A stretch of 64,000 nt of DNA from Verrucomicrobiia bacterium (GTDB taxonomy: Bacteria > Desulfobacterota > Binatia > UBA9968). The stretch covers positions 10,178 to 74,177 of the forward strand of contig DATJFG010000133.1 of assembly GCA_035495775.1 (NCBI GenBank), in the 5' to 3' direction. The notes below the pieces were generated by a model. The model was not told the DNA's origin. It saw nothing but the letters and a program-made list of their open reading frames with translations, and did no database searches. A program made the position numbers and the translations under genes. Shown in pieces: positions 4,931-44,565 of the stretch; the stretch's first letter is position 1, and each line of letters opens with the position of its first letter.

Positions 4931-4960
4931 GAGGCCTCCTCTTAGGCGACGGGCGAACGG

Positions 4961-7065: not shown

Positions 7066-7073
7066 TGTTCCTC

Positions 7074-21364: not shown

Positions 21365-21380
21365 TGGCATGAAAGGTGCT
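21365..21380 (+). promoter_or_regulatory. possible sigma54 promoter variant TGGCAT-gaaag-GTGCT upstream of split PFOR
   Basis: GG and GC dinucleotides at correct spacing, but -12 is GTGC not TTGC; overlaps the first ATG of the track ORF. Confidence 0.35.
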
Positions 21381-21401
21381 TTGAAAAGTCATGAGAAAAT
21401 T

Positions 21402-25012: not shown

Positions 25013-25822
25013 ATGACCGCCGCCGAATTCATCAACCGCTTTGTTCTTGCCCGCTCGGCCTATCGGCGCCGCGATACCGAGGCGGCCGAAGCGGCGCATG
25101 CGCATCACCATCTCGAACTATCGCTCTATGAGACCGGGCGGCACGGCCAGCATTTGGCCGACGCGGTGCTCGGGGCGACCGACGGCGTCGTCACAACCTT
25201 CGCAGTCGTCGCCGGCGCAGCGGGCGCGCACCTCTCCTCGGGTGTCGTCCTCATCATGGGCTTTGCCAATCTTTTAGCCGACGGCCTGTCCATGGCGATC
25301 GGCAATTATCTCGGCGCTCGTTCGCAGCGCGATTTCTGGCGCGAGGAACGCGAACGGGAAATCTGGGAGATCGAGCAAATTCCCGAGGCGGAGCGTGAAG
25401 AGATCCGCCGGCACTACCGCCGCAAAGGCTTCGAAGGGGATTTTCTCGAACACGCGGTCGGCCTCATCACGTCCGATAAAGAGCGCTGGCTCGATGAAAT
25501 GATGCGCGAAGAGCTCGGCATCCGCGAAGAAAAGACCGCGCCGGGCATGAGCGGTATCGTCACGTTCGCGGCATTTTCGCTGGTCGGCCTTCTGCCTCTG
25601 ATCTCTTACACGATTGCGTTCTTCTATGCCGATTTTCTGAGGAGCGCGTTTACAGTGTCGATTGCTCTTACGGCCGGCGCGTTGTTCGCCGTCGGCGCGG
25701 CGCGCTGCTTCATTACGCGCCGTACCTGGTGGCGGAGCGGCTTCGAAATCCTCGCATTGGGCGGCGCCGCCGCTCTGTGCGCGTACGCCGTCGGCTATTT
25801 TTTGCAGGCTTTGGTTGGCTGA
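25013..25822 (+). CDS. VIT1/CCC1 (vacuolar iron transporter) family membrane protein
   Basis: Conserved GATDGVVTTFAVVAG and second half LVGLLPLI TM blocks; 269 aa. Confidence 0.7.
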   Translation: MTAAEFINRFVLARSAYRRRDTEAAEAAHAHHHLELSLYETGRHGQHLADAVLGATDGVVTTFAVVAGAAGAHLSSGVVLIMGFANLLADGLSMAIGNYLGARSQRDFWREEREREIWEIEQIPEAEREEIRRHYRRKGFEGDFLEHAVGLITSDKERWLDEMMREELGIREEKTAPGMSGIVTFAAFSLVGLLPLISYTIAFFYADFLRSAFTVSIALTAGALFAVGAARCFITRRTWWRSGFEILALGGAAALCAYAVGYFLQALVG

Positions 25823-25835
25823 AAAGGAGAGCTCT

Positions 25836-26171
25836 ATGACCGTCGAAACGACTGCGGCAACGCCGCTCAGCTTAAGAGAGCATCTTTGGATGGCGCTCGT
25901 CGTCGGGTTTTTGCTGCTCGTCTCGATCGCCTGGACACGGCTGGCGGTGAATGCGTCCGAAGGGCCGCAAAAGAGCGACGGTTATGTCCGGCGCGAGAAA
26001 AAGCCGGTGCTCTCGCCCGCGCTTTTCGTCGGCCAGACGGCGAAGGCCTACCGCATCGCGCAGGAGATTCCCGATGTTCTCGACCAGCTCTACTGTTATT
26101 GCGAATGCGACAGGCACCTCGGGCATAAGAGCCTGCTCTCGTGTTTCACCGATGATCACGGCGCCGGCTGA
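25836..26171 (+). CDS. PCYCGC-motif membrane-anchored protein. The ORF ends at an in-frame TGA and may continue to 26279 as a selenoprotein.
   Basis: TM helix then YCYCECDRHLGHKSLLSCFTDDHGAG; TGA at 26169. The downstream in-frame peptide VNICQGEALDASQMLKQGYSIKQIRAEIDKKYARR runs to TAA at 26277. Confidence 0.55.
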   Translation: MTVETTAATPLSLREHLWMALVVGFLLLVSIAWTRLAVNASEGPQKSDGYVRREKKPVLSPALFVGQTAKAYRIAQEIPDVLDQLYCYCECDRHLGHKSLLSCFTDDHGAG

Positions 26172-26286
26172 GTGAACATCTGCCAAGGAGAGGCGCTGGA
26201 TGCGTCTCAAATGTTGAAGCAGGGCTACAGCATCAAGCAGATTCGCGCCGAGATCGATAAGAAATACGCCCGGCGCTAAAATAAAC

Positions 26287-28284
26287 GTGAAGAATTTTCT
26301 TTTCATTCTTCTTTTTCTTCTTGTCCCCGGGCACGCTTTCGCCCACGGTGAGCACGGCAATGCCGCGCCGCCCACGGGAACGTCGCCGGTAACCGTCGAC
26401 GGCTATCAAATTGAACTGTTGACGGTTCCTTCGCCGCTCGTCGCCGGCAAAGCGAGCCAAATCGTCGCGAAGGTGCTGCGCAGCGGCACGATGGAGCCCG
26501 TGAGCGGCGGCACGGTTTCCATCGGCATCGCCCCGATGGAAGCGGCGGCGGCGATGGATGCGCATAGTGAGCACGCCGGTCATGCCGCAATGAATCACGG
26601 TTCGTCTTTGACGCCGGTGCCCGAGGTCACATGGGCGGGCAGCTATACGCTCGAGCAGACGCCGGTGCAGCCGGGCTCCCATATGGTCCGCGTTGCGCTG
26701 GCGGAGCTCAACGGCAGAGCTTTCGCATCGCCGATCGTTATCGATTTTCATATCGACGTCGGCTCCGCCAACGCAATTTCGCCCGCGCTTCTCATAGCCG
26801 CGCTATCGGCATTGGTCGTCGCTTTCGTCGGCGTCGGGCGCGCCGCGGCGCGCGCGCGCGCGCCGATCGAGGCCGAGGGTTCGCTCGATTTGCTGCGCCT
26901 TCAATGGCTCGATCGCTTCGTCCGCTGGAGAGGATTCCAGCCGGTTTTTCAACTCCCCGTTTTAGCGCTGACGATTCTGCTCGCGTATCTGGGCTTCGCC
27001 GACATCCAGGACGGCGCGAAAAATCTCGCGACGAGACTCACCTGGATCGTCTGGTGGCCGAGCATCATCTTTACTTTTATTCTCGTCGGCCGCTTCTGGT
27101 GCGTGATGTGTCCGTTCGGCGCACTCAACGAATGGGCGGCGAAATTGGGCAAGCCCGGGCGCATGTTTCCCAAACCGCTGCGCAATCTTTGGGTTGCGAC
27201 TTTTCTCTTTGTCCTTCTCACTTGGTTCGACGAGCAGCTCGGCATCATCCGCTCGCCGTATATGACGGCTTCTCTCATCGTCCTGCTCTCGTCGGCCGCG
27301 ATCGTCACCGGACTTTTTTATCAGCGCCGGACTTTTTGCCGATATCTATGCCCGATCACCGGCTTGCAGGGCCTTTACTCGATGATCTCCCCCGTCGAGC
27401 TGCGCTCAAAAAATCGCAGCGCGTGCCAGACCGAGTGCCATCAGGAATGCTATCGCGGCAACGACCGCGGCGACGGCTGCCCGATGTTCGAGTTCCCGAT
27501 GATGATGGAGCAGAATACGTTCTGTAACTTCTGCTTCGAATGCGTGAAAAGCTGTCCGCCGGGAAATCTAGCGCTTAAAACGCGCGCGTTTGGACGCGAG
27601 CTGTGGAGCGCGGGCGTCCGCAAGCTCGACGAAGCGTATCTCGCCGTCGCGCTGGTCGGCATCACCAGCATCGTCAGCGCGCAGATGCTCGGGCCGTGGA
27701 ACGACTGGATATCGCGCCTGGCGCGTTATCTGCCGATCGACATCCGTGTTTTGATGCGGCCCGTGACATATCTCGCGATGACCGAATCGGCCGTGTTCTT
27801 CCTGCTATCGCTCGCCTTTGCCCCCTTGCTGGTACTTTTCGCCGCCTGGTTGGCGGTCAAGTCGTCAGGTGAAACGGCGCGAAGCGTCAAGGAGACGTTT
27901 GTCATGTTGGCGGGCATGTTTATTCCCGTCGGCCTCGCGATGCATCTCGCGCACAACGCGTCCCATCTTCTGGCCGAGGGAGCCGGGGTTATTCCGGCCT
28001 TGCAGCGCGTCTTGAACCGCTACACTCCGTTCGATTTCGGCACGCCCAATTGGCAGAGCAGCCCGCTGGCGTCCGCCGAAGCGATCCACTGGCTGCAGAT
28101 GCTGCTCATCGTTGCCGGGCTCGGTCTCTCGTTGGCCGCCTACGAGCATCTTTCGATCGCATGGCAGGGAAAGCGGCCGCAAGGGGCGCGGGCGCTCATT
28201 CCGTTCGCGGCAGTGGCCCTCATCTTCACGATCATCAATTTGCTCCTCCTCAATCAGCCGATGGCCATGCGCCACGGCATGTAA
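26287..28284 (+). CDS. membrane polyferredoxin of NapH/CcoG(FixG)/NosR type with N-terminal periplasmic His/Met-rich domain
   Basis: Signal peptide; HGEHGN and MDAHSEHAGHAAMNHG; CxxCP motifs FWCVMCPFG and CRYLCPITG; two ferredoxin motifs CQTECHQEC...CP and CNFCFECVKSCPPG; extra C-terminal TM helices; GTG start. Confidence 0.7.
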   Translation: MKNFLFILLFLLVPGHAFAHGEHGNAAPPTGTSPVTVDGYQIELLTVPSPLVAGKASQIVAKVLRSGTMEPVSGGTVSIGIAPMEAAAAMDAHSEHAGHAAMNHGSSLTPVPEVTWAGSYTLEQTPVQPGSHMVRVALAELNGRAFASPIVIDFHIDVGSANAISPALLIAALSALVVAFVGVGRAAARARAPIEAEGSLDLLRLQWLDRFVRWRGFQPVFQLPVLALTILLAYLGFADIQDGAKNLATRLTWIVWWPSIIFTFILVGRFWCVMCPFGALNEWAAKLGKPGRMFPKPLRNLWVATFLFVLLTWFDEQLGIIRSPYMTASLIVLLSSAAIVTGLFYQRRTFCRYLCPITGLQGLYSMISPVELRSKNRSACQTECHQECYRGNDRGDGCPMFEFPMMMEQNTFCNFCFECVKSCPPGNLALKTRAFGRELWSAGVRKLDEAYLAVALVGITSIVSAQMLGPWNDWISRLARYLPIDIRVLMRPVTYLAMTESAVFFLLSLAFAPLLVLFAAWLAVKSSGETARSVKETFVMLAGMFIPVGLAMHLAHNASHLLAEGAGVIPALQRVLNRYTPFDFGTPNWQSSPLASAEAIHWLQMLLIVAGLGLSLAAYEHLSIAWQGKRPQGARALIPFAAVALIFTIINLLLLNQPMAMRHGM

Positions 28285-28313
28285 AACTCCCGCGCACTAC
28301 GGAGGTTGTTTCG

Positions 28314-30680
28314 ATGTCCCGAGCAAATTTAAGCAGGCGCGACTTTCTCCGCCAGACCGCCGCTCTCGCCGCGGCATCGGGCGTATCGCCGAGTGTTTTT
28401 TTCGCCAAGGAGGCCGACGCCGAAGAAGCGGTCGTCGATGCCTGGCAAAAAGCGCCGTGCCGCTTCTGCGGCACGGGCTGCGGCGTTCTAGCCGGAATAC
28501 GCAAAGGCAAGATCGTCGCCGTGCGAGGCGATCCCGAGGCGCCGGTCAACCGCGGGCTTCTCTGTATCAAAGGTTACAGTCTGCCGAAGATCCTCTACGG
28601 CTCCGACCGCTATACGACGCCGCTGCTGCGCCAAGGCGATGAGTTTGTCCCGATCACCTGGGAAAGCGCGCTCGATCTCATGGCCGCCAAGTTCAAGCAG
28701 GCGATCGAAAAATCCGGACCGGAATCGGTCGGCGCTTACTTCTCGGGGCAATCGACGATTTTCGAGGGCTACGCGATCAATAAGCTGATGAAGGGCGGCA
28801 TCGGTTCGAACAACATCGAGGGCAATCCGCGGCTCTGCATGGCTTCGGCCGTCACCGGATTCTACTCGACGTTCAATATGGACGAGCCGATGGGCTGCTA
28901 CGACGATTTCGAGCTCACCGACACCTTTTTTCTCTGGGGCTCGAACATGGCGGAAATGCATCCTATGCTTTACTCGCGCATTGTCGAGCGCAAGCGGCAA
29001 GACCCCGCCGTCAAGATCGTGAGCCTCCAGACCTTTACGAACCGCAGTGCGGAAGCTCCGGCCGATATCGTTATGGTCTTCAAGCCGCAGTCCGATCTCG
29101 CCATCGCCAACGCCATGGCCCACGTGGTCGTCAAAGAGGGGCTCATCGACGAGAACTTCATCCGCAAGCACGTGAATTTTAAACGCGGTCTCACCAACAT
29201 CGGCTACGGCGTCGAAGACCGCTTCGAATACGGCGGCGCGGAGCCGAGCTGGAAAACCTTTCGACCCTTCGCCGACAAAGGCGAGCCGGTAAGCTACGAC
29301 GATTACAAAAAATTTCTCCAGACCTACACGCCGGAATACGCCGAAAAGATCTCGGGCGTGCCGGCGCAGATAATCCGAGAGGCGGCGCTGCTATTCGGCG
29401 ATCCCAAGCGCAAGGCGGTTTCCCTTTGGACGATGGGGTTCAACCAGCACACCCGCGGCACTTGGATCAATAATTTGCTCTACAACCTGCACCTGCTGAC
29501 GGGAAAAATCGCCGCGCCGGGAAACAACCCGCTATCGCTCACGGGGCAGCCGTCCGCCTGCGGCACGACGCGCGAGACCGGCGCGCTCGCGCATCTTCTT
29601 CCCGGCGGTCATTTCGTCGCCAACGAAGAGCACCGAAAGGAGGCGGCGGAAATCTGGGGTGTCGCGCCGGAGAAGATCTCTCCCAAGCCGGGTTATCATA
29701 CGATGGAGCTGTTCCGCGCCTTGGACCGCGGCGACGTTAAAGTGCTGTGGATCAACACGACGAATCCATTTCAGACGCTGCCGCGCGCCGGCCGCTACCG
29801 ACAGGGCGCGCGTAAAGGCGGGGAGCGCTTTTTGATCGTGTCGGAGGTCTACCCGAGCGAGACGTCGCGTTACGCCGATCTCATCCTGCCGTCTGCGATG
29901 TGGATCGAGAAGGAAGGCATGTTCGGGAATACCGAGCGCCGCACGCAGCATTGGGCGAAGATGGTCGAGCCGCCCGGCCAGGCGAAAGGCGATCTATGGC
30001 AAATCGTCGAGCTGGCGAAGCGCTTGGGTCTGGGGAAACTTTTCGACTACGGCGCGGAGCCGCTGGAGAAATCCTTATTCGAAGAATATCGCAAGTTCGG
30101 CTCGGGAAGAGGAAAGGATCTCGCTCCGTACGATGTCTACGCAAAGGTTCGCGGCGGACTTAGGTGGCCGGTGGTCGACGGCAAAGAAACTCGCTGGCGC
30201 TATCGCGAAGGTCACGATCCCTACGTCAAGGCCGGCGAGGAGGTGCGCTTTTACGGCCAGCCGGACGGCCGCGCGGTTATTTGGCTGCGGCCCTACGAGG
30301 CGCCGGCGGAAGCGCCGGACGGCGATTATCCCTTCTGGCTCAGTACCGGCCGCGTCCTTGAGCATTGGCACACCGGAACGATTACGCGGCGCGTTCCCGA
30401 ACTCCACGCGGCTTTTCCCTTCGCCCCGGTTTGGATCAATCCCGATGACGCCAAGGCCATGGACGTCAAGACCGGCGACCGCATGCGCATCCAATCCCGC
30501 CGCGGCGAGATTGTCGCGCGCGCCGAGCTGGGCGGCAGGAACACGGTGCCGAAAGGCTTCGTTTACGTGCCGTTTTTCGATGAGAGCGTGCTGATCAATT
30601 TGGTGACGCTGGACGCTTTCGATCCCATTTCCAAACAGCCGGACTTCAAGAAATGCGCCGTCCGATTAGAGAAAATATAG
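28314..30680 (+). CDS. napA: periplasmic nitrate reductase catalytic subunit NapA (molybdopterin oxidoreductase)
   Basis: Tat signal SRRDFLRQTAALAAA; N-terminal [4Fe-4S] motif CRFCGTGCGV typical of NapA; ~788 aa. The track ORF starts upstream, but the ATG at 28314 with GGAGG RBS fits. Confidence 0.85.
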   Translation: MSRANLSRRDFLRQTAALAAASGVSPSVFFAKEADAEEAVVDAWQKAPCRFCGTGCGVLAGIRKGKIVAVRGDPEAPVNRGLLCIKGYSLPKILYGSDRYTTPLLRQGDEFVPITWESALDLMAAKFKQAIEKSGPESVGAYFSGQSTIFEGYAINKLMKGGIGSNNIEGNPRLCMASAVTGFYSTFNMDEPMGCYDDFELTDTFFLWGSNMAEMHPMLYSRIVERKRQDPAVKIVSLQTFTNRSAEAPADIVMVFKPQSDLAIANAMAHVVVKEGLIDENFIRKHVNFKRGLTNIGYGVEDRFEYGGAEPSWKTFRPFADKGEPVSYDDYKKFLQTYTPEYAEKISGVPAQIIREAALLFGDPKRKAVSLWTMGFNQHTRGTWINNLLYNLHLLTGKIAAPGNNPLSLTGQPSACGTTRETGALAHLLPGGHFVANEEHRKEAAEIWGVAPEKISPKPGYHTMELFRALDRGDVKVLWINTTNPFQTLPRAGRYRQGARKGGERFLIVSEVYPSETSRYADLILPSAMWIEKEGMFGNTERRTQHWAKMVEPPGQAKGDLWQIVELAKRLGLGKLFDYGAEPLEKSLFEEYRKFGSGRGKDLAPYDVYAKVRGGLRWPVVDGKETRWRYREGHDPYVKAGEEVRFYGQPDGRAVIWLRPYEAPAEAPDGDYPFWLSTGRVLEHWHTGTITRRVPELHAAFPFAPVWINPDDAKAMDVKTGDRMRIQSRRGEIVARAELGGRNTVPKGFVYVPFFDESVLINLVTLDAFDPISKQPDFKKCAVRLEKI

Positions 30681-30688
30681 GTGGGCTC

Positions 30689-30985
30689 ATGACGAAAATC
30701 ATTTTCCCGATTCTTTTCGTGGCATTTCTCGCCTTATCGACCGCGCAGGACTCTCCCGCAGAAGAGAGTCAGCGGTTGCCGCGCTCTTATCCTGGAGCGC
30801 CGCCTCTGATTCCGCACGATGTGGAGGCGCGAAAGGGACTTTGTCTCACCTGTCATGAAACCGGAGTGGCTGAGGCGCCGATCGTTCCGCATCCGACGCG
30901 TGATCCGGTATGCCTGGAGTGCCATGTCGGCCAAGACCGTACGGCGAAAGAGTTCCGTAGCTCCACTCAGCCGGCTAAGCAGTAA
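30689..30985 (+). CDS. napB: diheme cytochrome c NapB, small subunit of periplasmic nitrate reductase
   Basis: Signal peptide, two CxxCH (CLTCH, CLECH), LIPHD region; ~98 aa; immediately downstream of napA. Confidence 0.75.
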   Translation: MTKIIFPILFVAFLALSTAQDSPAEESQRLPRSYPGAPPLIPHDVEARKGLCLTCHETGVAEAPIVPHPTRDPVCLECHVGQDRTAKEFRSSTQPAKQ

Positions 30986-31066: not shown

Positions 31067-31543
31067 TCAAGCCGCTGCAACAGCCGGCTTCAGCTGCGGC
31101 TGTGGTCGGATAGACAGAACGGGGCAGGATGATTTCCGCACGACGTTTTCCGTGACGCTTCCCGTGAGCATGTGCGATAGCCCTGTCCTGCCATGCGTTG
31201 AGATGACAATGAGATCGACATTCTCCTGGGCGACCTTCTCTACGATATTTTCGTCTGGATTGCCTACTTCAACGATAGCTTCCAACCCTTCCACCGGCAG
31301 CAAATCGCTACAGTGCGCTTCGATGAAGCTCGCGAGCAGCTGACGATGCTTCTTCAACAGCTTTTCAAGCAGAATCGGCTTGACGTGCAAGAGCTGGAAG
31401 CGGACAAATTCGTCAAGGCAAAGCACGTGATAGACGATGACCTTGCAGCCGGACTCTTTGGCCATCTCAAGCGCCGTACGCAAGCCGACAAGCGAAAGCT
31501 CCGATAAATCCGTCGGCGCCAGAATCTTTCCAATTTTTTTCAT
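31067..31543 (-). CDS. universal stress protein (UspA family)
   Basis: 158 aa; USP fold blocks (ILAPTDLSE..., VIVISTHGRTGL..MLTGSVTENVVRKSSCPVL). Confidence 0.85.
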   Translation of the reverse strand: MKKIGKILAPTDLSELSLVGLRTALEMAKESGCKVIVYHVLCLDEFVRFQLLHVKPILLEKLLKKHRQLLASFIEAHCSDLLPVEGLEAIVEVGNPDENIVEKVAQENVDLIVISTHGRTGLSHMLTGSVTENVVRKSSCPVLSIRPQPQLKPAVAAA

Positions 31544-31603: not shown

Positions 31604-31769
31604 CCCATAACGAGTAAATCTCCAGGAAAAAGCCTGTCTCTACATGGCTTTTTCCACTTTTTAAGAGAATGGCGCTTAAAATTCGCATTGAAGCGAAAAA
31701 TTCCCTCGCCCTCTTCAGTAAGTTGTGCTATTTTTCCACGGCATAAAGCTTGCTGTGTGGTTTCGGCGC

Positions 31770-32510
31770 ATGAGGAATCGGCTCATAATTACGTCCGCTT
31801 TTTCCTTCCTCATCACCTCCTTTATTTTTTCAGCGGCTCTGTCTTTCGCCTACGATGAGATCGCAGTTGCCAACGGCGGTGCGATCAAAGGCACGGTCCG
31901 GTTTACCGGCGGTCTGCCGAAGCTCGCCCCCCCCGTCGTGACGAAGTTCAAAGAGGTCTGCCAGGGCGTTCCGAATGAAAGCCTGGTCAGCGGTCCGGGA
32001 CAGGGAATCCGCTATGCCGTCGTCACGCTTGAAGGCGTCGCCAAAGGACGTCCCATCGAGCGCGAAGTCGTCCATGAAATCGACAACGTAAAATGTCGCT
32101 TCGCGCCCCATGTGATCGTCGCGGAGGTGGGGCAGTTTATCGTCTTCAAGAACAGCGATCCGATACTCCATACGGCGCACGCTTTATTCCAGGGCGATCA
32201 GCCGCAATTCAACGTCGGCCTCTATCCTGGACGCGTCAGCCGCAAGCCGCTGACGATGCCGGGAATCGTAAAGATCATTTGCGAAGTCCATTCATGGATG
32301 AGCGCCTACGTCGGGGTCACCGATCACCCGTATCACGCCGTCACGGACGCCTACGGTGAATATTTAATCCAAGATGTGCCGCCGGGCGTCTACCGGCTGA
32401 AACTATGGCATGAGACTTTGGGCGTCCAGGAGAAAGATATCGAAGTGAAAGCGGCTACGACTGCGCAGGTCGACTTCAGCATGTCGCAAAAATCGGGAGA
32501 AAAGAAATGA
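31770..32510 (+). CDS. secreted cupredoxin-like (type-1 copper, C-x2-H-x2-M) domain fused to carboxypeptidase-regulatory-like beta-sandwich domain
   Basis: Signal peptide; ligand candidates H (PILHTAHALF) and CEVHSWM (amicyanin-like C-x2-H-x2-M); C-terminal YGEYLIQDVPPGVYRLKLWH CarbopepD_reg-like. Confidence 0.5.
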   Translation: MRNRLIITSAFSFLITSFIFSAALSFAYDEIAVANGGAIKGTVRFTGGLPKLAPPVVTKFKEVCQGVPNESLVSGPGQGIRYAVVTLEGVAKGRPIEREVVHEIDNVKCRFAPHVIVAEVGQFIVFKNSDPILHTAHALFQGDQPQFNVGLYPGRVSRKPLTMPGIVKIICEVHSWMSAYVGVTDHPYHAVTDAYGEYLIQDVPPGVYRLKLWHETLGVQEKDIEVKAATTAQVDFSMSQKSGEKK

Positions 32511-34213: not shown

Positions 34214-34225
34214 GGAGGTCGGAAC

Positions 34226-36556: not shown

Positions 36557-36940
36557 ATGCAATGGATCATCTTGATTGGTGCGTTAGTGATTTTCTCATT
36601 TTCCTCTCCGGCCAGCACATGGGCGCAGTCAAAAGGGGATGCCAACGCTGGAAAAGCAAAATACGAATCTCTATGCGCGGGCTGTCACGGGAAAACAGGT
36701 AAGGGCGACGGCCCGGCGGCGGCGAGCTTGAACCCCAAGCCGCAGGATCATACCGATGGCAAAGTCATGAATGCTCTCAGCGATCAATACCTGACGGACA
36801 TTGTCAAGAACGGCGGCGCATCGGTTAAAAAATCGCCGCTGATGCCCGCGTGGGGCAAGACGTTGAAGGACCAAGAAGTAGCGGATGTAATCGCCTATAT
36901 AAGAAGCTTGGCCAATCCTCCCTACAAGTCGGGGAAATAA
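36557..36940 (+). CDS. monoheme class I cytochrome c (MtoD-like candidate)
   Basis: Signal peptide, single CAGCHG, distal Met region; 127 aa. Confidence 0.8.
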   Translation: MQWIILIGALVIFSFSSPASTWAQSKGDANAGKAKYESLCAGCHGKTGKGDGPAAASLNPKPQDHTDGKVMNALSDQYLTDIVKNGGASVKKSPLMPAWGKTLKDQEVADVIAYIRSLANPPYKSGK

Positions 36941-37065
36941 GGACGCTCTATTCCCTGTCGGCCTGGAACGTTTTCATTCGGCGGCGAATCGACATCGGCG
37001 GCAGCCGCTTGTAATCATCGATCGGCATATTAAAATTACATAGCAGATTCACAGGAGGAATCATC

Positions 37066-37389
37066 ATGAAAATCTTCGTAGCCATGCTTGGTTTTTTCCT
37101 CGCTGCAGCGCTGTCCGGCGTTGGCTGGGCCGCCGATGCCGGCAAGGCTGTGTATGACAAACAGTGCGCCTCGTGCCATGGACCCGACGGCAAGGGGAAT
37201 CCATCGATGGCGAAGGTTTTTGGCGAGAAGCAACTCAACATCGCCACAAAGGAAGTCGCGGATAAGAAAGACGACGAGCTCGTCAAGGTGATTACCGAAG
37301 GTAAAGGCAAAATGCCGGCCGCGGGCAAGTCGCTGAACGCCGCAGATCAAAAAGCCGTCGTAAGCCACGTAAAGTCTCTCGGGAAGTAG
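37066..37389 (+). CDS. monoheme class I cytochrome c
   Basis: Signal peptide, CASCHG; 107 aa; paralog of 46495-46845 product. Confidence 0.8.
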   Translation: MKIFVAMLGFFLAAALSGVGWAADAGKAVYDKQCASCHGPDGKGNPSMAKVFGEKQLNIATKEVADKKDDELVKVITEGKGKMPAAGKSLNAADQKAVVSHVKSLGK

Positions 37390-37417
37390 GCGGCAGCAGG
37401 GGAACAACACGGCCTTG

Positions 37418-38599
37418 ATGATAAAAATCATCGCTGCCGCTGCTGTTCTCCTCTGCTTGGCCAGCGCGGCGTTCGCTCAATCGCTCTTCACTTCGGAGCA
37501 GGATCCGACCGCCGGCGCTCGCGTCTTCGGTGCTAAGGGATGCTCGAATTGCCATAGCATCGAAGGGCTCGGCGGCAAAATCGGCCCCGATCTCGCGCGC
37601 ACCCAGCAAGGCCGCTCGTTTTACGATCTCGCCGCCGCCATGTGGAACCATCTTCCAGGCATGGCGGACAAGATGCGGGAGTTGAAGATCCAGCGGCCGC
37701 TTCTCAGCGCCGAAGATGCGGCCAACCTGATCGCGTTCCTTTTTACGCTCCAGTATTTTGACCGTCCTGGAAATGTCGATGCAGGCAAACGTCTCTTCGC
37801 GGAAAAAAAATGCGTTGTTTGCCATCAACTGAACGGCACCGGCGGCGTCGTCGGCCCGAATCTCGACGGGCTTAAAGATTATGGCTCGCCGCTCTTCATC
37901 GCCGCTGCTATGTGGAATCACGGACCATCGATGGCCGCGGTTATGCGTGAAAAGAGGATTGCACGGCCGTCGTTCAGGGGTTCGGAACTGACCGATCTCA
38001 TCACATATATAAAATCGGCGGCGACGGCGAAAAGCGAGTCGCCGGTGACTGTTTTGACCGGCTCTCCCGAACGCGGCCGGCGACTTTTCGCCGATAAGCA
38101 CTGTCTCGAGTGCCATAGTGTCGCGAGTCAGGGAGGAAAAATCGGGCCGGATCTGGCGGATAAAGCGCTCCACCGAAGCATTCTCGATTTCGCAGCGGCG
38201 ATGTGGAACAAAGCGCCGGCGATGCTCGCGGCGATGAAGACCCGCAAAGTCGCTGCTCCGAGACTAGAACCCGAAGAGATGGCCGACATCGTCGCCTATC
38301 TTTACTCCGTCCAGTACTTTGCGCGCCCGGGCAACGCGAAAAGGGGGCGCGAGATTGCCTCCCAAAAAGGATGCTTTAGCTGCCATGGCGTAGCTGGCGT
38401 CGGGGATAAGTCCGCGCCGAGTTTTTCGCAGATCAAGGACATCGACTCGCCGGCGACCGTGATCGCGGCGATGTGGAATCATTCGTTTCTCACGGATCGA
38501 CCGTTGCAGGGTCAAAAAACGCTTTGGCCGCAGTTTCGTGCCGACGAGATGGCGGATTTGGCGGCCTATTTGCAAACGAGTGGCCGGGGGCCGACATGA
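37418..38599 (+). CDS. tetraheme cytochrome c built from four tandem class-I cytochrome c domains
   Basis: Four ~95-aa repeats, each with CxxCH (CSNCH, CVVCH, CLECH, CFSCH), a GPDL/GPNL turn and an AAAMWNH motif. Confidence 0.8.
   Translation: MIKIIAAAAVLLCLASAAFAQSLFTSEQDPTAGARVFGAKGCSNCHSIEGLGGKIGPDLARTQQGRSFYDLAAAMWNHLPGMADKMRELKIQRPLLSAEDAANLIAFLFTLQYFDRPGNVDAGKRLFAEKKCVVCHQLNGTGGVVGPNLDGLKDYGSPLFIAAAMWNHGPSMAAVMREKRIARPSFRGSELTDLITYIKSAATAKSESPVTVLTGSPERGRRLFADKHCLECHSVASQGGKIGPDLADKALHRSILDFAAAMWNKAPAMLAAMKTRKVAAPRLEPEEMADIVAYLYSVQYFARPGNAKRGREIASQKGCFSCHGVAGVGDKSAPSFSQIKDIDSPATVIAAMWNHSFLTDRPLQGQKTLWPQFRADEMADLAAYLQTSGRGPT
37480..38590 (+). repeat. 4x intragenic tandem repeat (~285 nt units) encoding cytochrome c domains
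   Basis: Repeated protein blocks G(A/E)(R/K)..F..K.C..CH......G.(I/V)GP(D/N)L....FAAAMWN. Paralogous at protein level, nucleotide divergence substantial. Confidence 0.6.
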
Positions 38600-39849
38600 G
38601 CGCTTTGCGCGCATACGGAGTGTTTTTGTGTTTCGTTTTCCTGGGGCTCGCTGCCTTGTCGTCGGCGGCCGAACCGGAGAGTTGCGTCGCCTGCCATCAA
38701 GCGATCGGCGTACCCAAGCTCACCCAGCCGGTCAAAGATTTTCCCCAGGACATCCACGCAGTCAAGGGGTTTGGCTGTGTCGCCTGTCACGGCGGCGACG
38801 CCAAAGACCCCGGCATGACGGCCATGGACAAGACCAAAGGCTTCATCGGCGCGCCGACGCGAAAAGATCTTCCACAGGTGTGCGGACATTGTCATTCCGA
38901 TGCGCGTTTCATGCGGCAATACAATCCATCCCTGCGCGTCGATCAGGTTGCGGAGTATTACACCTCGGTCCACGGCCAGCGGCTCGCGCGCAACGGCGAC
39001 GAAAAGGTCGCGGTTTGCACGAGCTGTCACCCGGCGCACTCGATCCGTCCGCCGTCGGACCCGCGCTCCTCGGTCCATCCGCTGAAGGTCGCCGACACGT
39101 GCGGCCGGTGTCACGCCGATGCGAAGTACATGGAGAGCTACAAGATCCCGACCGACCAGCTGCCCAAATATAAAAAGAGCGTGCACTGGCGGATGATGTC
39201 GGCCGGCGGCGATCTCTCCGCGCCCACGTGCAACGATTGCCACGGCAATCACGGCGCCGCGCCGCCGGGAGTCTCTTGGGTCGGGAATGTCTGCGGCCAG
39301 TGCCACGCGCAAAACGAAGAGCTGTTCAGCAAAAGCGTTCACTCCAAAGCATTCGTCAAAATGGGCATTCCCGGCTGCGCCACCTGTCATTCAAACCACG
39401 AGATCGTCCCGCCGAGCGACGCGATGCTCGCGGTCGGCGAGGGCGGCGCCTGCGCGGGTTGTCACACCGCCGAAGACAACGGCGGCAAGACCGCTCTGGA
39501 GATGCATCGGCAGATCGATGCGCTGAGAAACGCCTACGACAAGGCGCATGCCGCTCTGGCGAAGGCTGAGTCTGCCGGCATGGAAGTCAGCCAGCCGCAG
39601 TTTGAACTGAACGGCGCCAAGACCGCGCTCGTCAAGTCGCGCGCGGCAGTGCATGCGTTCAACATCGACGCAGTCAAAAAAGAAGCCGCGCCCGGCATCG
39701 ATATCAGCGGAAAAGTCTATGCCAGGGGCGTCAAAGCGCTCGATGAATTGCAATTCCGCCGCAAGGGGCTCGCGGTCTCCGCGCTGATCATCGCCGGGTT
39801 GATCGTCGGCCTGGTCTTGAAAATACGAGAGATGGAGAAGCCGAAGTGA
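38596..39849 (+). CDS. nonaheme c-type cytochrome with C-terminal membrane anchor
   Basis: Signal peptide; 9 CxxCH; C-terminal TM helix GLAVSALIIAGLIVGLVL; ATGA overlap with upstream gene. Confidence 0.8.
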   Translation: MSALRAYGVFLCFVFLGLAALSSAAEPESCVACHQAIGVPKLTQPVKDFPQDIHAVKGFGCVACHGGDAKDPGMTAMDKTKGFIGAPTRKDLPQVCGHCHSDARFMRQYNPSLRVDQVAEYYTSVHGQRLARNGDEKVAVCTSCHPAHSIRPPSDPRSSVHPLKVADTCGRCHADAKYMESYKIPTDQLPKYKKSVHWRMMSAGGDLSAPTCNDCHGNHGAAPPGVSWVGNVCGQCHAQNEELFSKSVHSKAFVKMGIPGCATCHSNHEIVPPSDAMLAVGEGGACAGCHTAEDNGGKTALEMHRQIDALRNAYDKAHAALAKAESAGMEVSQPQFELNGAKTALVKSRAAVHAFNIDAVKKEAAPGIDISGKVYARGVKALDELQFRRKGLAVSALIIAGLIVGLVLKIREMEKPK

Positions 39850-39875
39850 GAGATTCCAACGCCTCAGGAGATAAC

Positions 39876-40331
39876 ATGTCCGACGGAACACTCGATCCGC
39901 GAATCGACCGGAGAAACTTCTTAAACTGGTTTCTAGGTACGACGGCAGGCGCTTTTCTCGTCGCGGTTCTGTACCCGCTGAGCCGCTACCTTATCCCTCC
40001 AAAGGTCGAGGAGTCGACCGCCAAGAATGTTACACTTTCGATCAAACCCGGCGACGTCAAAGTCAACAGCGGCGAGATTTTCCGCTTCGGCAACCAGCCG
40101 GCGATTTTGGTTCGGACCCCCGCCAACGAGCTCAAAGCGTTCTCGGCGGTCTGCACGCATCTGTCCTGTATCGTTCAATACCGATCGGACCTGAGCCATA
40201 TCTGGTGCGCGTGCCACAACGGCCACTATGATCTCAACGGTAAAAATATCATCGGCCCGCCGCCCAAGCCGCTCGAAGCATACACCGTCAACGTCAAGGG
40301 CGACCAGATCGTTGTGAGCAAGACGGCGTGA
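39876..40331 (+). CDS. Rieske [2Fe-2S] iron-sulfur subunit of a cytochrome bc-type complex
   Basis: Tat motif RRNFLNW, TM helix, CTHLSC...CACHNGHY Rieske boxes; ATG at 39876 with AGGAGA RBS preferred over GTG at 39846. Confidence 0.85.
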
Positions 40332-40336
40332 CGCTT

Positions 40337-41434
40337 ATGGAACCGACGACGGAAAAGCACGGCAAGCTCTGGAACTGGTTCGACGCGCGCGTCGGACTGA
40401 AAGATTTGGACAAGCTTGCCAAAAAAAAGCAGGTACCGCTGCACAGGCACAGTTCGTGGTACTACTTCGGCGGCATGACGCTGTTTCTCTTCACGGTTCA
40501 GGTGATCACGGGCATCTTGCTGCTACTGTACTATCGGCCGAGCTCAGGCGAGGCCTACGAATCGGTGCAATTTCTCATGACGGAAGTCGAGTTCGGCTGG
40601 CTCGTCCGGTCGATTCACGCGTGGTCCGCCAATCTGATGATCTTTACGCTGTTCGTCCATCTGTTCAGCACGCTGATGCTCAAGGCGTACCGCCAACCGC
40701 GGGAGCTGACCTGGCTTTCCGGCATGGGCTTGATGGCTCTGACATTGACGTTCGGTTTTACCGGTTACCTGCTCCCGTGGAACAAGCTCGCGTTCTTCGC
40801 CACCAGCGTCGGGACGGAAATCCCCGGGGTTCTGCCGGTCGTGGGCGCGTTTCTCCGCAGACTGCTTCGCGGCGGCGATGAGGTAACGGGCGCCACGCTG
40901 ACGCGGTTTTACGGCATCCACGTCGCCGTCCTTCCTGCGCTCGTTTCCTCGCTGATCGGCGTCCATCTCTTTTTGGTGCAAAAGCATGGCATGAGCGTTC
41001 CTCCGAGCGTCGCCGGGCAGGCGAGCCCGCCGCGAACGATGCCGTTCTTTCCCAACTTTTTCCTGCGTGACGCGGTCGGCTGGCTCTGCGCGCTGGCGGT
41101 GCTTGCGACGCTGGCGGCGTTCTATCCGGCGGAGCTCGGCGAGAAGGCCGACCCGTTTCAGCCGGCGCCGATCGGTATCAAGCCTGAATGGTATTTCATG
41201 TTCATGTTCCAGACGTTGAAGCTGCTGCCGAGCTACATCCTCGGCATCGAAGGCGAGCTCGTGGGTATTCTCGCATTCGGCGCAGGGGGGCTGTTTCTCG
41301 CGCTGATTCCGTTCCTCGATCGTGCATCGGCACGCGGCGAGCGCAGCCAGCTTTTTGTCTGGATCGGCAGCGCGATCATTCTTTACATGCTGGTTTTAAC
41401 TTATCTGGGATACACGATGAGCGCGACAAAGTAG
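40337..41434 (+). CDS. cytochrome b (b6/subunit IV fused type) of bc complex
   Basis: [11 protein letters not shown]-terminus like b6 YDWFEERL; heme-ligand His in TM helices ([22 protein letters not shown]); PEW-like loop LLPWN; 366 aa. Confidence 0.85.
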
Positions 41435-41463
41435 CTTGTACGTATCGTTGAACGCAGGACAAG

Positions 41464-42570
41464 ATGAAAACGGCCGAGTCCATTTCAATCATCGTCGTCT
41501 TCTTCGGTGCGGTTTTTCTCATCTCCTCGATTTCTTTCGCTCAGACTATCGCGTTTCCGAAAGATTGTGTCAGTTGCCACGGTTCCGAAGCGAAATATCC
41601 GGTACGCGGCGTGCGCAGCCAGTATCTGACTTCCGGCCATCGAACCATCGGCAACGCCTCGTACGCCAACGCCGACGATTGTCAGGGTTGTCATACGAAC
41701 GAAGGATTTATCGACAGGGCGAAGACCGGGAAGGTCGATACCAAGAAATACGTACGCTATCCATCGGAAATCGGCTGCTTCACCTGCCACGCTCCGCACG
41801 ACAGAGGCGACTTCTCGTTGCGTAAGACGACGGCTGTCACGCTCGCCAACGGCACCACCTACGACCGAGGCAAAAGCAATTTATGCGCGAGTTGCCATCA
41901 AGCCCGGCGCACAGCCAAAGAAGAAGTGAAGGCGCGAGTCATCCCGAGCGACAGCTGGGGCGCTCACCATGGGCCGCAAGCGGATATGCTTCTCGGCACG
42001 AATGCGTATGAGTACTCGGGAAAGAAATATTCCAAATCACCACACGCGGTTTTATCCAACGCCGACTGTATCACCTGCCACATGGCCCTCCCGAACGGAC
42101 GCTATTCGCTCGCCCCTTCGATCGGCGGGCACAGCTTTAATGTCGCAGGCGAGGTGCACGAACGGCCGACGGTCAACGCGGCGGGATGCCTGTCGTCAGG
42201 CTGCCATACGGAGATGAAACAGATCGAAGGAAAACCCTTCTTCGATCGCAAGGCAGCGGCGGATTACGATGGCAACGGCAAAATCGAAAGCATCCAAGAA
42301 GAAGTGCAAGGGCTCCTTAACAAGCTCATCAACGAGCAAGGCACCGGCCTTTTGCAGACGATGAAAAATCCTCCCTACGACGCAAAAGGAAAATTTATCG
42401 AGAATAAGGTTTCGTATCCCGTCGAGGTCACGGCGGCTCTTTACAATTACAAATTCGTCAAAGAAGACGGCAGCCGAGGGATCCACAATACTACATACGC
42501 CGTCGAGCTCTTGATCGATTCCATCCACGCGTTGAACAAAGATTTCGACGATTCCAAACGGCCGCAATAA
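41464..42570 (+). CDS. hexaheme c-type cytochrome subunit of the bc complex
   Basis: Signal peptide; CVSCH, CQGCH, CFTCH, CASCH, CITCH plus non-canonical CLSSGCH (CX4CH). Confidence 0.75.
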   Translation: MKTAESISIIVVFFGAVFLISSISFAQTIAFPKDCVSCHGSEAKYPVRGVRSQYLTSGHRTIGNASYANADDCQGCHTNEGFIDRAKTGKVDTKKYVRYPSEIGCFTCHAPHDRGDFSLRKTTAVTLANGTTYDRGKSNLCASCHQARRTAKEEVKARVIPSDSWGAHHGPQADMLLGTNAYEYSGKKYSKSPHAVLSNADCITCHMALPNGRYSLAPSIGGHSFNVAGEVHERPTVNAAGCLSSGCHTEMKQIEGKPFFDRKAAADYDGNGKIESIQEEVQGLLNKLINEQGTGLLQTMKNPPYDAKGKFIENKVSYPVEVTAALYNYKFVKEDGSRGIHNTTYAVELLIDSIHALNKDFDDSKRPQ

Positions 42571-42600
42571 AAGGCCGGCCGAGAAGTCGGCGGATCGTCA

Positions 42601-44565
42601 ATGAGGGTTTGTGTGAGTAGGCATTGGTTTGCTGTGATCCTCGCAGTTTGTTTCTTCGCGTCGCTTTTTTCGCTGTCAGTCGTGCATGCAGCGGAACCTT
42701 TAGCGAAGGAAGTCTGTCTTTCGTGCCATGGCGCGCCGGGATTGGAAAAAACGCGCGACGGCAAGACCGTCTCCTTGCAGGTCGACGGGGACGCTTTTGA
42801 GCACTCCGTGCACGCTCCTTTCGGGTGCGTGACGTGTCACAGCGACATCAGCGCCATCCCGCATTCACCGCAATTAAAGCCGGTGGATTGTAGCGCCTGC
42901 CACGCCGAAGCCATCAAAGTTTTCTCGCAGAGCGTTCACGGTAAGGCGCGGGCCAACGGAGCAGCCGAAGCGCCGACGTGCAAGAGCTGTCACGGCGACC
43001 TCCACCGCGTCAAACGAAGTTCCGAGCCGGACGCGCGAACTTATCGCACGAACATTCCGAACGTGTGCGCGTCGTGCCACGCCGATGAGAAGATTGCGCA
43101 GAAATTCCGCATCCCGATCGTCCGTCCGGTCGAGGCGTATCTAAAAAGCGTGCATGCGCGTGCCGTTGCCGCCGGCAGAAACGGCGCCGTCTGCACCGAC
43201 TGCCACGGCTCGCACGGCATTGAGCCCGGATGGGACCCGACTTCTTCCGTATGGCGGATCAGCATTCCGGCGACCTGCGGCAAATGCCATGAGCAGATCC
43301 AGACGGCATACCGCGAGAGCGTTCACGGGGTGGCGCTCGCTCGCGGAGTGCGCGAAGCTCCGGCTTGCACCGACTGTCACGGAGAACATCGCATTCTGGC
43401 GCCGAGCGAACCGCAGTCGCCCGTATTCGCCGCCAACATTCCCGGTGAAACCTGCGGCCGCTGCCACGGCGACGCGCGCCTGAGCGAGAAATACGGGATT
43501 CCCATCGACAAGGTTCGAGCCTATCAGGACAGCTATCACGGACTCGCCTTGCGCGGCGGCAAGGTCACCGTTGCCAATTGTTCGAGCTGTCACGGCGTGC
43601 ACGATATCAGAGCGTCTTCGGATCCGCGCTCGCATGTTAACGCGAAAAACCTGCCGCAGACTTGCGGCAAGTGCCACCCGGGGGCCGGTCTCGTTTTGGC
43701 GCTCACACGCGTGCACGTCCTGCCGACCGAGTCGGACCCGGTGCTTTATTGGATTCGCTTCATTTATCTCTGGATCATCGGCCTCGTCATCGGGGGCATG
43801 CTGATTCACAACTTGATCGACCTTGTGAAAAAAGCGCGCAGCGAAATTCCGCATCATGCCGAGATCGTCCCGACGTCCGAACGGATGCCGCGCCAGCTCC
43901 GCTGGCAGCACGGTCTCGTCATGGTGAGTTTTCCTTTGCTGGTCTATACCGGCTTCGCTCTCACGTATCCGGAAACCTGGTGGGCCACGCCGCTGGTCCG
44001 CTGGGAGGCTCAAGTGGGAATCCGCGGCCTTCTGCACCGCATTGTCGCGTGCATCCTTGTCGCGTCTCTTTTGTGGCACGGGATATCTATTGCCCGCAGT
44101 CCAAGACTGCGCGAATGCCTGCTGCGCTCAATCATGTTCCGGTTCCAGGATATACGGGATATGATCCGGCTCCAGCGTTACAATCTCGGATTTGATTCCG
44201 AACGGCCGCGGTTCGGTAAGTTCAGTTACATCGAAAAAGCCGAGTACTGGGCATTCATGTGGGGCATGATATTGATGACCGTCACCGGAGTGCTTCTGTG
44301 GTTCAACAATACGACCCTGCGCTACCTGTCGAATTGGATCACCGACATCGCGACTGCTCTTCACTTCTACGAAGCCGTTCTGGCGACCCTCGCAATCCTG
44401 GTCTGGCACTTCTATTGGACGATGTTCGATCCTGAGGTTTATCCGATGGACGCAAGCTGGTGGCACGGCCGCGCGCCGGCCGCCCGCGAGGCGGAACGCC
44501 ATGAGCCGATATCGCCTCCGGTTGAGGGGAAAGAAACGCCGAATCCGCCACTCGATAGAAAATAA
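42601..44565 (+). CDS. CbcL-like fusion: periplasmic multiheme (11 CxxCH) cytochrome c domain + C-terminal diheme cytochrome b (HydC/FdnI-type) membrane domain
   Basis: 11 CxxCH in the N-terminal 370 aa. This is followed by 4-5 TM helices with conserved His (HNLIDL, WWHG...) typical of Ni/Fe-hydrogenase or Fdh gamma b-type cytochromes. Confidence 0.75.
   Translation: MRVCVSRHWFAVILAVCFFASLFSLSVVHAAEPLAKEVCLSCHGAPGLEKTRDGKTVSLQVDGDAFEHSVHAPFGCVTCHSDISAIPHSPQLKPVDCSACHAEAIKVFSQSVHGKARANGAAEAPTCKSCHGDLHRVKRSSEPDARTYRTNIPNVCASCHADEKIAQKFRIPIVRPVEAYLKSVHARAVAAGRNGAVCTDCHGSHGIEPGWDPTSSVWRISIPATCGKCHEQIQTAYRESVHGVALARGVREAPACTDCHGEHRILAPSEPQSPVFAANIPGETCGRCHGDARLSEKYGIPIDKVRAYQDSYHGLALRGGKVTVANCSSCHGVHDIRASSDPRSHVNAKNLPQTCGKCHPGAGLVLALTRVHVLPTESDPVLYWIRFIYLWIIGLVIGGMLIHNLIDLVKKARSEIPHHAEIVPTSERMPRQLRWQHGLVMVSFPLLVYTGFALTYPETWWATPLVRWEAQVGIRGLLHRIVACILVASLLWHGISIARSPRLRECLLRSIMFRFQDIRDMIRLQRYNLGFDSERPRFGKFSYIEKAEYWAFMWGMILMTVTGVLLWFNNTTLRYLSNWITDIATALHFYEAVLATLAILVWHFYWTMFDPEVYPMDASWWHGRAPAAREAERHEPISPPVEGKETPNPPLDRK

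Follow-up and report, generated by a model that had tools for sequence, protein, structure and literature searches.

Candidatus (Ca.) Methylomirabilis oxyfera carries genes for the periplasmic nitrate reductase NapAB without any nap accessory genes, and NapAB has been found in its proteome (PMC6094997). Bare napAB has been on record since the publication of that genome. Polyferredoxins, membrane proteins with cysteine-proline motifs and iron-sulphur (Fe-S) clusters, are known from several other settings: CcoG, a polyferredoxin with a periplasmic immunoglobulin (Ig)-like domain, reduces Cu(II) (PMC7558416), and in the ftrABCD operons of Sinorhizobium and Azospirillum plasmids we confirmed the gene order iron transporter (P19), cupredoxin, FTR1 and 4Fe-4S protein. 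Here we analyse a stretch of 64,000 nucleotides (contig DATJFG010000133.1, positions 10,178 to 74,177; hereafter the window) in which napA and napB follow a gene for a polyferredoxin, itself preceded by a gene for a small selenoprotein of the CYCXC (or PCYCGC) family. We consider it reasonably probable that two separate things stand side by side here: a Nap-independent pair of polyferredoxin and CYCXC protein, and a minimal napAB. The latter is a further member of the NC10-type minimal napAB.

Both nap genes are intact, as the preliminary description of this locus had stated from the sequence alone: they stand as open reading frames (ORFs) at the coordinates listed in Table 1, and family models and motifs agree. 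The true start of NapA is the ATG at 28311, preceded by a GGAGG ribosome-binding site, and its 789 residues include SRRDFLR (28332-28352) as twin-arginine translocation (Tat) motif, CRFCGTGCGV (28458-28487) as cluster motif and RLCMAS (28830-28847) as molybdenum-ligand context. NapA passes both NCBIfam equivalog models, with 1073 bits against NF010055 (cut-off 904) and 1036 bits against TIGR01706 (cut-off 930); its full-length alignment with E. coli NapA shows 51% identity. The closest named sequences are those of Ca. Methylomirabilis (M. oxyfera) and NC10 at 76% identity, followed by the Geobacter/Desulfuromonadia clade at 60%. NapB scores 33.6 bits against the Pfam family PF03892 (cut-off 25.1), stays far under the NCBIfam NapB equivalog (23 versus 230 bits) and is 51-65% identical to NapB proteins of the NC10-type clade; with a Pfam match and a missed equivalog, it is a divergent short form that is common to NC10.

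That the locus lacks napC, napD, napF and napG had also been noted, and this extends to the whole window. We searched all 64 kb by tblastn with NapC, NapD, NapF, NapG and NapH of E. coli K-12, and scanned 68 of the large ORFs with Pfam and NCBIfam models, a few short ORFs, including 901-1626 and 63224-63973 (both on the minus strand), being covered by tblastn alone. Neither approach found a homologue of NapD, NapF, NapG or NapH in the window; the best tblastn match of NapD has an E-value of 0.18. One qualification applies to NapC. The sole NapC-related gene of the window lies 13.6 kb downstream of nap, at the end of the cytochrome cluster, and encodes a NapC/NirT-like dodecahaem cytochrome of 602 residues with 12 CxxCH motifs and N-terminal transmembrane helices; its homologues adjoin the polyferredoxin in seven nap-free loci, and we regard it as a candidate quinol dehydrogenase of the periplasmic chain. 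Neither NapD nor a dedicated quinol dehydrogenase, the marks of a canonical nap operon, accompanies napA within the window.

Relatives of the window's napAB are built in the same way. A scan of metagenomes for NapA neighbourhoods yielded 84 loci, with NapD in 49, NapC in 57 and NapGH in 17. Nine of the 84 are of the NC10 type, and none of these nine has napC, napD, napF, napG or napH, so the bare napAB is a trait of the whole clade. This clade comprises the loci at 73-79% identity together with Ca. Methylomirabilis, and napC, napD, napG and napH occur in none of them; Geobacter nap has napD upstream. On an independent metagenome contig (L093:946-7510), napA and napB are followed immediately and on one strand by genes for an MtoA-like decahaem cytochrome and an MtoB-like porin, and other NC10-type loci have a monohaem cytochrome c and a multihaem cytochrome (L096), Rieske/cytochrome b (L095) or an upstream multihaem cytochrome (L094) as neighbours. 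Such company of cytochromes and MtoAB is typical of most loci of the clade, but not of those of Ca. Methylomirabilis, where napAB lies inside a nirS-nirJ-nirF-napA-napB-nirDL cluster, without accessory genes and apart from the polyferredoxin.

Judging from gene content, electrons probably reach NapAB from the c-type cytochrome network and not from a dedicated NapC or NapGH. The preliminary description had suggested this route, which is supported by the clade-wide absence of napC, napD, napG and napH and by the recurrence of c-type cytochromes. Candidate entry points would be the Rieske/cytochrome b pair (39846-41434), the NapC/NirT-like dodecahaem protein (44604-46412) and MtoAB (33251-36535), from which electrons may pass to the nitrate reductase via the monohaem and 4-haem cytochromes (36557-38599).

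The polyferredoxin gene stops 26 nt before the start of napA, on the same strand, and the preliminary description implied that its product stands in for NapH or NapGH. Its distribution speaks otherwise. Full-length relatives of 48-100% identity come from Ca. Binatia, Rokubacteria and NC10/Methylomirabilota. When one genome per species was scanned, at least 452 species genomes proved to hold relatives, and this set reaches Desulfobacterales, Nitrospirota, Nitrospinota, Actinobacteria and Methanoperedenaceae. We mapped the window proteins onto 80 genome loci and several metagenome contigs. A genuine napA stands beside the polyferredoxin in none of the 80 genome loci, which gave only matches of 23-30% to other molybdoenzymes. 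The sole relative to repeat the order VIT1-PCYCGC-polyferredoxin-napA-napB-Usp (universal stress protein) comes from a metagenome and is 81% identical. A syntenic locus at 75% identity, with the order rSAM (radical SAM)-POR-POR-VIT1-polyferredoxin-CarboxypepD_reg-cupredoxin-MtoA-MtoB-cytochromes, has neither napAB nor Usp, and L012 (56%) reads polyferredoxin-Usp-CarboxypepD_reg-cupredoxin, again without napAB. In Rokubacteria and NC10 the polyferredoxin is directly followed by EB_dh, a 4-haem cytochrome c, a 9-haem cytochrome, Rieske and cytochrome b. The polyferredoxin locus of NC10 CSP1-5 (L022) has this arrangement, and NapAB was not detected in the CSP1-5 genome (PMC6094997).

The nap-free loci across the relatives indicate that napAB is a recent insertion downstream of a pre-existing Nap-independent module; as far as the compared loci tell, the lineage of the window and the 81% relative are alone in having napAB between the polyferredoxin and the genes that follow it. 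The protein also fails the NapH models (22.3 bits versus 234 for NF007013; 21 versus 213 for TIGR02163), NapG is absent from the window by tblastn, and the adjoining NapG and co-occurrence with nap that characterize NapH are not seen. The polyferredoxin module is very probably independent of Nap, and the implied role as a NapH or NapGH substitute is not supported.

By its sequence the polyferredoxin is a member of the NapH/NosR/CcoG/FtrD superfamily (Pfam Fer4_5). The Fer4_5 model matches it in two stretches with 52.5 bits (cut-off 22), which correspond to one CxxCP (CVMCP) and one CxxxCP (CRYLCP) motif, and the cysteines are invariant across the 34 aligned sequences from which we called conserved residues. 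The signal peptide ends in AFA, immediately before HGEHG, and ten transmembrane helices are predicted. The HGxHG at the mature N-terminus is close to invariant. The His/Met-rich loop of the N-terminal domain (residues 86-106) is present in the window's protein, where the model shows it as disordered, with a predicted local distance difference test score (pLDDT) below 50. The loop is an insertion specific to one clade: in relatives of about 66% identity or more it is rich in His, and the Rokubacteria and NC10 homologues lack it; since it is not conserved, we rejected it as the defining functional feature. In the Fe-S domain the second cluster motif is atypical (C380/C384/C388...C398P): C384 is not conserved, the invariant cysteines being C380, C388, C398, C413, C416, C419 and C423. 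The protein ends in a His-rich module of five helices with a PMxMRHGM tail, and this module is retained in homologues of Actinobacteria, Deinococcus and Methanoperedens that have no N-terminal domain. The positive-inside rule places the Fe-S domain in the cytoplasm and the conserved His, Glu and Met residues on the periplasmic face, where H20, H23, E43, E113 and Y120 of the N-terminal domain, D315, E316 and Q317, H553, H556, N557, H560 and E564, and the tail are conserved. The CxxCP core, the periplasmic N-terminal domain and the extra C-terminal helices of the preliminary description stand; one motif is CxxxCP, and one of the two Fe-S motifs is atypical.

Pfam searches at E < 5 with the isolated N-terminal domain and C-terminal module, from five homologues each, gave nothing meaningful, and no FixG_C, CopC, YtkA, CopD or FTR1; a profile search of PDB sequences with the family alignment gave no match. 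A profile search with the N-terminal domain against 1.8 billion representatives returned 69 matches and no informative fusions, the domain being almost restricted to the polyferredoxin family. In Deinococcus ficus plasmid pDFI1 (L092:6042-6968) and Intrasporangium (L083:9303-9926), homologues without the N-terminal domain follow an overlapping gene of unknown family, whose product holds HGGHAGAAPAAG or HGGHG and so resembles the HGEHGNAAPPTG start of the fused domain; the resemblance is not statistically significant. An hhalign comparison of the N-terminal domain profile with these upstream partner proteins was likewise not significant, the short HGGH(A/G)...AAP motif alone aligning. Two cyanobacterial proteins (H2 and H12, from plasmids of Aulosira laxa and Pseudanabaena) match the polyferredoxin core with E-values of 8e-31 and 3e-24; they are annotated as nitrogen-assimilation regulator or cyclic-nucleotide-monophosphate-binding (cNMP-binding) and may be fusions of sensor domains to a polyferredoxin-type core.

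The gene directly upstream encodes a CYCXC protein in which, by alignment and model, a transmembrane anchor is followed by a periplasmic helical Cys/His-rich domain with a [U/C]xx(x)C motif. Public gene calls cut this protein at about 116 residues or miss it. The ORF truncated at the in-frame TGA scores 88.1 bits against NCBIfam NF041379 (cut-off 90) and covers model positions 2-56 of 90; reading through the TGA restores the conserved C-terminal part, and we count the protein as a member of the CYCXC (seleno)protein family NF041379. Past the TGA the frame runs on for 35 conserved codons to a TAA at 26277-26279, 7 nt before the start of the polyferredoxin. At the selenocysteine position the homologous loci have TGA in 36 of 43 cases and a Cys codon in the remaining 7, and the downstream peptide is conserved. 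It is on this conserved reading frame and this alternation of TGA and Cys that the case for selenocysteine is built; the search for a selenocysteine insertion sequence (SECIS) gave a 7-bp hairpin 19 nt past the TGA whose folding energy is that of shuffled sequences (z -0.58).

In 53 of 83 loci, a set with many truncated members, the PCYCGC gene adjoins the polyferredoxin. In the window VIT1, CYCXC protein and polyferredoxin form a tightly spaced run, with gaps of 13 and 7 nt, and the same order recurs in L005, L015, L084-86, L091 and the P0005 contig, which bears out the grouping of the polyferredoxin with the upstream PCYCGC and VIT genes. In the literature searched we found no description of a systematic polyferredoxin-CYCXC pairing, although a PCYCGC lipoprotein of Parageobacillus adjoins an Fe3+ binding protein (PMC13068155).

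Among annotated sequences, the polyferredoxin core is best matched in iron uptake, by the genes that true ftrABCD operons carry for a '4Fe-4S binding protein'. BLASTP against Sinorhizobium FtrD gives 84 bits (E 2e-21) with 33% identity over 183 residues (240-419), collinear across both Cys-Pro motifs, whereas E. coli NapH gives 34 bits (E 6e-6). The N-terminal domain has a predicted fold like that of P19, FtrA and CrdA, with CrdA, PmoD and CopC among the fold matches. Neighbouring genes add to this: an FTR1 permease fused to the PF10080 'FtrD-like' domain lies directly downstream in L009, L010, L011 and L014, which are Binatia-type loci, and is also present in L082 (the CYCXC protein has no similarity to this PF10080 domain). 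Genes for FeoB or DtxR are found in 6-7 loci, for VIT1 in 6 and for a cation diffusion facilitator (CDF) transporter in 2; cupredoxin genes also recur near the polyferredoxin. The neighbours indicate iron no less than copper, and we regard the neighbourhoods as fitting an iron theme without proving it. The idea of copper or other metal handling, first put forward on account of the His/Met-rich domain, thus survives for metal in general, through the P19-like fold, the FtrD-like core and the FTR1, Feo and VIT1 neighbours, and loses its specific basis for copper, as the His/Met loop is not conserved.

From these comparisons we infer as follows which way electrons flow, which metal is bound, what the selenoprotein does and what donates to NapB. 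In this Binatia lineage the pair sits within a supercluster for iron and extracellular electron transfer, made up of VIT1, CYCXC, polyferredoxin, CarboxypepD_reg, cupredoxin, MtoAB, c-type cytochromes and Rieske/cytochrome b. The P19-like domain and the His/Met-rich periplasmic face may bind a metal, most probably iron, possibly copper or iron with copper. The polyferredoxin would then shuttle electrons between this periplasmic metal site and the cytoplasmic Fe-S clusters, as has been proposed for FtrA and FtrD of FtrABCD, and in the periplasm the [U/C]xxC selenoprotein would assist it as a partner in redox reactions or metal handling. The napAB genes are probably read through from the polyferredoxin transcript, and NapAB would most likely be fed from the periplasmic pool of c-type cytochromes, itself supplied by Rieske/cytochrome b, the NapC/NirT-like dodecahaem protein or MtoAB. 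That the polyferredoxin is an Ftr-like periplasmic metal-redox protein with a CYCXC partner is put forward tentatively, as a plausible mechanism that falls somewhat short of probable.

Several observations weigh against the combination of an Ftr-like pair with an unrelated nap. The likeness of the N-terminal domain to P19 is structural only, the AlphaFold model is of moderate confidence with a mean pLDDT of 71, and hhalign found no significant similarity between the N-domain profile and FtrA. No FTR1 permease is encoded in the window. Among the 45 long loci, on which our counts of iron genes are based, only 13 (about 29%) have an iron-transport gene, and other recurrent neighbours are TlpA-like redoxins, CcdA, the EB_dh haem-b protein and the Rieske/cytochrome b block; in Desulfobacterales and Nitrospirota, 12 loci have TlpA-like redoxins and 5 have CcdA, and Ccm genes are found as well. 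The role of FtrD has itself never been shown experimentally, and PMC11966278 assigns none of FtrA, FtrB and FtrD to a known redox family, although it describes the oxidation of Fe2+ by copper-loaded FtrA. As for nap, no terminator is predicted in the 26-nt gap between polyferredoxin and napA, in a scan that is uninformative on operon boundaries, so the two probably share a transcript here, and the polyferredoxin could have been recruited to Nap secondarily in the lineage of the window.

Of the other explanations, one makes the pair an accessory, electron-input or maturation subunit of a respiratory or extracellular-electron-transfer module built from multihaem cytochromes and Rieske/cytochrome b. 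There is precedent in other NapH-type proteins, among them NosR, NirI, MauN and RdhC, each dedicated to a specific periplasmic redox enzyme, and in 16-22 Rokubacteria/NC10 loci the polyferredoxin stands directly before an EB_dh-4-haem-9-haem-Rieske-cytochrome b-multihaem-b561 block, the same block being found downstream in the window. However, the pair also occurs without the block, in Desulfobacterales, in Nitrospirota and in loci of the L002 (Feo) and L009 (FTR1) types; its closest annotated relative is FtrD, and the N-terminal domain resembles metal-binding proteins, not cytochrome partners. We consider this explanation quite unlikely.

Could the polyferredoxin be a CcoG-like cupric reductase that gives Cu(I) to periplasmic cuproproteins, for example the nearby cupredoxin, or supports copper tolerance? 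The analogy with CcoG, the fold matches to CrdA, PmoD and CopC, the cupredoxin genes that recur nearby and the presumable copper ligands, that is, the His residues of HGxHG at the mature N-terminus and the Met/His tail, all suit such a role. We find it distinctly unlikely on the grounds that the transporters encoded nearby are iron transporters and that FtrD of rhizobial plasmids is among the matches listed at E < 1e-3, while FixG and NosR, 12 further records aside, are not. Orthology to CcoG, raised in the preliminary description in the form of a CcoG next to ccoNOQP, is likewise rejected: no CcoG or FixG_C model matches the protein at E ≤ 0.01 (Pfam) or E ≤ 0.001 (NCBIfam), and the window has no cco genes.

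A thiol/selenol system, in which the polyferredoxin sends electrons across the membrane to a CYCXC selenoprotein acting as a CcmH-like reductase, could find its substrates, for example, in the apocytochrome c CxxCH sites of these cytochrome-rich loci, or serve the detoxification of metals or metalloids. The match to CcmH is weak, however, no substrate is evident, and the metal-binding-like N-terminal domain and the FTR1, Feo and VIT1 neighbours would be left unexplained, which makes this explanation very unlikely. Last, the polyferredoxin could be a quinol dehydrogenase of the NapH kind that takes the place of NapGH or NapC and passes electrons straight to NapAB. This would account for the NapH-type Fer4_5 core, the position 26 nt upstream of napA on the same strand and the locus without napC or napGH, but is highly improbable given the failed NapH models, the absence of NapG, a napA adjacency confined to the window and one 81% relative, a periplasmic domain with no haem or Fe-S motif to relay electrons to NapB, and the 80 genome loci, 75% relative and NC10 genomes in which polyferredoxin and nap are kept apart, CSP1-5 being without NapAB (PMC6094997).

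Table 1. Coordinates of the polyferredoxin, nap and neighbouring features in the window.
Feature	Position	Strand	Remarks
VIT1-family Fe2+/Mn2+ transporter	25013..25822	+	Pfam VIT1, 218 bits
CYCXC/PCYCGC-family selenoprotein, 147 residues	25836..26279	+	In-frame TGA (selenocysteine 112) at 26169-26171
Polyferredoxin, 665 residues	26287..28284	+	Signal peptide, P19/YtkA-like domain, FtrD/NapH-type core with 2x Fer4_5, cytoplasmic Fe-S domain
Polyferredoxin: N-terminal periplasmic beta-sandwich domain, residues 20-162	26344..26772	+	HGxHG at mature N-terminus; His/Met loop 26542-26604
Polyferredoxin: membrane core, transmembrane helices 1-5	26773..27633 (with Fe-S domain)	+	CVMCP 27100-27114, CRYLCP 27337-27354
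Polyferredoxin: cytoplasmic Cys-rich Fe-S domain, residues 345-449	27319-27633	+	One canonical CxxCxxCxxxCP motif
Polyferredoxin: C-terminal five-helix module	27634..28281	+	H553, H556, N557, H560, E564 conserved; tail NQPMAMRHGM
napA	28311..30680	+	Periplasmic nitrate reductase catalytic subunit, NC10 type; NCBIfam equivalog and motifs
napB	30689..30985	+	Short dihaem cytochrome c subunit, 98 residues; two CxxCH motifs
Universal stress protein	31067..31543	-	Pfam Usp; convergent with napB
CarboxypepD_reg-like protein	31725-32510	+	Pfam
Cupredoxin fused to CarboxypepD_reg domain	32507-33124	+	Pfam
MtoA/DmsE-type decahaem cytochrome	33251-34213	+	TIGR03508, 254 bits, above cut-off; 10 CxxCH
MtrB/PioB-type outer-membrane porin	34226-36535	+	TIGR03509, 246 bits, above cut-off
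Cytochrome network	36557..44565	+	Monohaem c, 4-haem c, 9-haem, Rieske, cytochrome b, 5-6-haem, 11-haem fused to b561-like domain
NapC/NirT-family membrane-anchored dodecahaem cytochrome	44604-46412	+	PF03264, 35.5 bits (cut-off 24.1)

Further genes of the locus are summarized in Table 1. Whether Usp is present at this position varies among the relatives: on the P0005 contig none lies between the polyferredoxin and CarboxypepD_reg, and in L012 it is present; in the 75% relative the CarboxypepD_reg and cupredoxin genes come straight after the polyferredoxin. The block at 37415-44565 is syntenic with Rokubacteria/NC10, its 9-haem cytochrome, Rieske and cytochrome b proteins being 63-77% identical. 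An EB_dh gene (ethylbenzene dehydrogenase gamma-like, haem b) directly follows the polyferredoxin in 16 Rokubacteria/NC10 loci, e.g. L017:3684-4721, and is absent from the window. Directly upstream of VIT1 on the same strand (20102-25002) lie a radical-SAM gene and the genes of a two-subunit 2-oxoacid:ferredoxin oxidoreductase, in an order that is kept in L084, L043 and the P0005 contig and hints that cytoplasmic ferredoxin may be connected with the polyferredoxin. Farther away, the minus strand at 4103-8228 encodes a BcrAD/BadFG ATPase pair and two HGD-D subunits (of the benzoyl-CoA reductase or 2-hydroxyacyl-CoA dehydratase type), with enoyl-CoA hydratase, short-chain dehydrogenase/reductase (SDR) and amidohydrolase genes nearby and a UbiD-like decarboxylase at 16679-18331. 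A NapA identical to that of the window (P0121) is labelled 'Verrucomicrobiae bacterium' in an NCBI metagenome-assembled genome (MAG), and the relatives of the polyferredoxin are labelled Ca. Binatia, which suggests a conflict of binning or labelling.

What the locus means depends on both halves. Rather than a gap in one locus, the bare napAB is a property of a clade that takes in NC10 along with several lineages from metagenomes, and the recurrent cytochrome c, MtoAB and Rieske/cytochrome b neighbours give a concrete hypothesis on how a bare NapAB is fed, as well as candidate genes behind nitrate-dependent Fe(II) oxidation outside Proteobacteria. The other half is a conserved pair, present in hundreds of species of many phyla, of an Ftr-like polyferredoxin with a fused P19-like domain and a CYCXC selenoprotein; this pair is an uncharacterized variant within the NapH/NosR/CcoG/FtrD superfamily, and its N- and C-terminal modules belong to no Pfam family. 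Taken together, one might picture a Binatia NC10-type NapAB wired into an MtoAB/cupredoxin/Rieske-cytochrome b locus, such that electrons from external Fe(II) or another donor would pass to nitrate solely via periplasmic c-type cytochromes, with the adjoining P19-like::FtrD-like polyferredoxin and selenoprotein forming a previously unrecognized and widespread periplasmic iron-redox module. We rate this full picture as rather unlikely. If true, nitrate-dependent iron oxidation would have a compact enzymatic pathway here, and we note alongside it that the adjacency of napAB and mtoAB recurs independently in L093. A nap-dependent iron oxidizer proposed earlier has canonical napABCD and napGH, with Cyc2 (PMC10993476); the linkage of napAB to mtoAB without quinol dehydrogenases would, speculatively, be an arrangement distinct from it.

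Set beside the described systems, the locus compares as follows. The napAB of Ca. Methylomirabilis oxyfera (Damo_2410-11) shares with that of the window a 76% identical NapA, a short NapB and the lack of adjoining napC, napD, napF, napG and napH; it differs in position, as the Methylomirabilis genes lie within the nirS/haem d1 cluster and those of the window between the polyferredoxin and the Usp-cupredoxin-MtoAB cluster. The polyferredoxin is like NapH in having two Cys-x(2,3)-Cys-Pro motifs (Fer4_5) in its membrane core and, after them, a cytoplasmic Fe-S domain, and unlike it in length (665 versus 287 residues), in its extra N- and C-terminal modules and in a distribution that is unlinked to nap. 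With CcoG/FixG it has in common the combination of a polyferredoxin with a periplasmic Ig-like domain, and a metal-redox role is plausible in both (PMC7558416), but its Ig-like domain is N-terminal and of another family, and it has no ccoNOQP or ccoHIS context. The likeness of the partner protein to NF041379 CYCXC and Pfam PF13798 PCYCGC lies in the CYCxC motif and the Sec/Cys position. FtrD, of the FtrABCD/FtrAPBCD systems for Fe2+ uptake in Brucella, Bordetella, Burkholderia and Rubrivivax, is accompanied by a separate FtrA/P19 protein, whereas the polyferredoxin has a P19-like domain fused to it; its C-terminal module does not align with FtrD, the window's cupredoxin is unrelated in sequence to FtrB (no alignment), and the CYCXC selenoprotein partner is foreign to Ftr systems.

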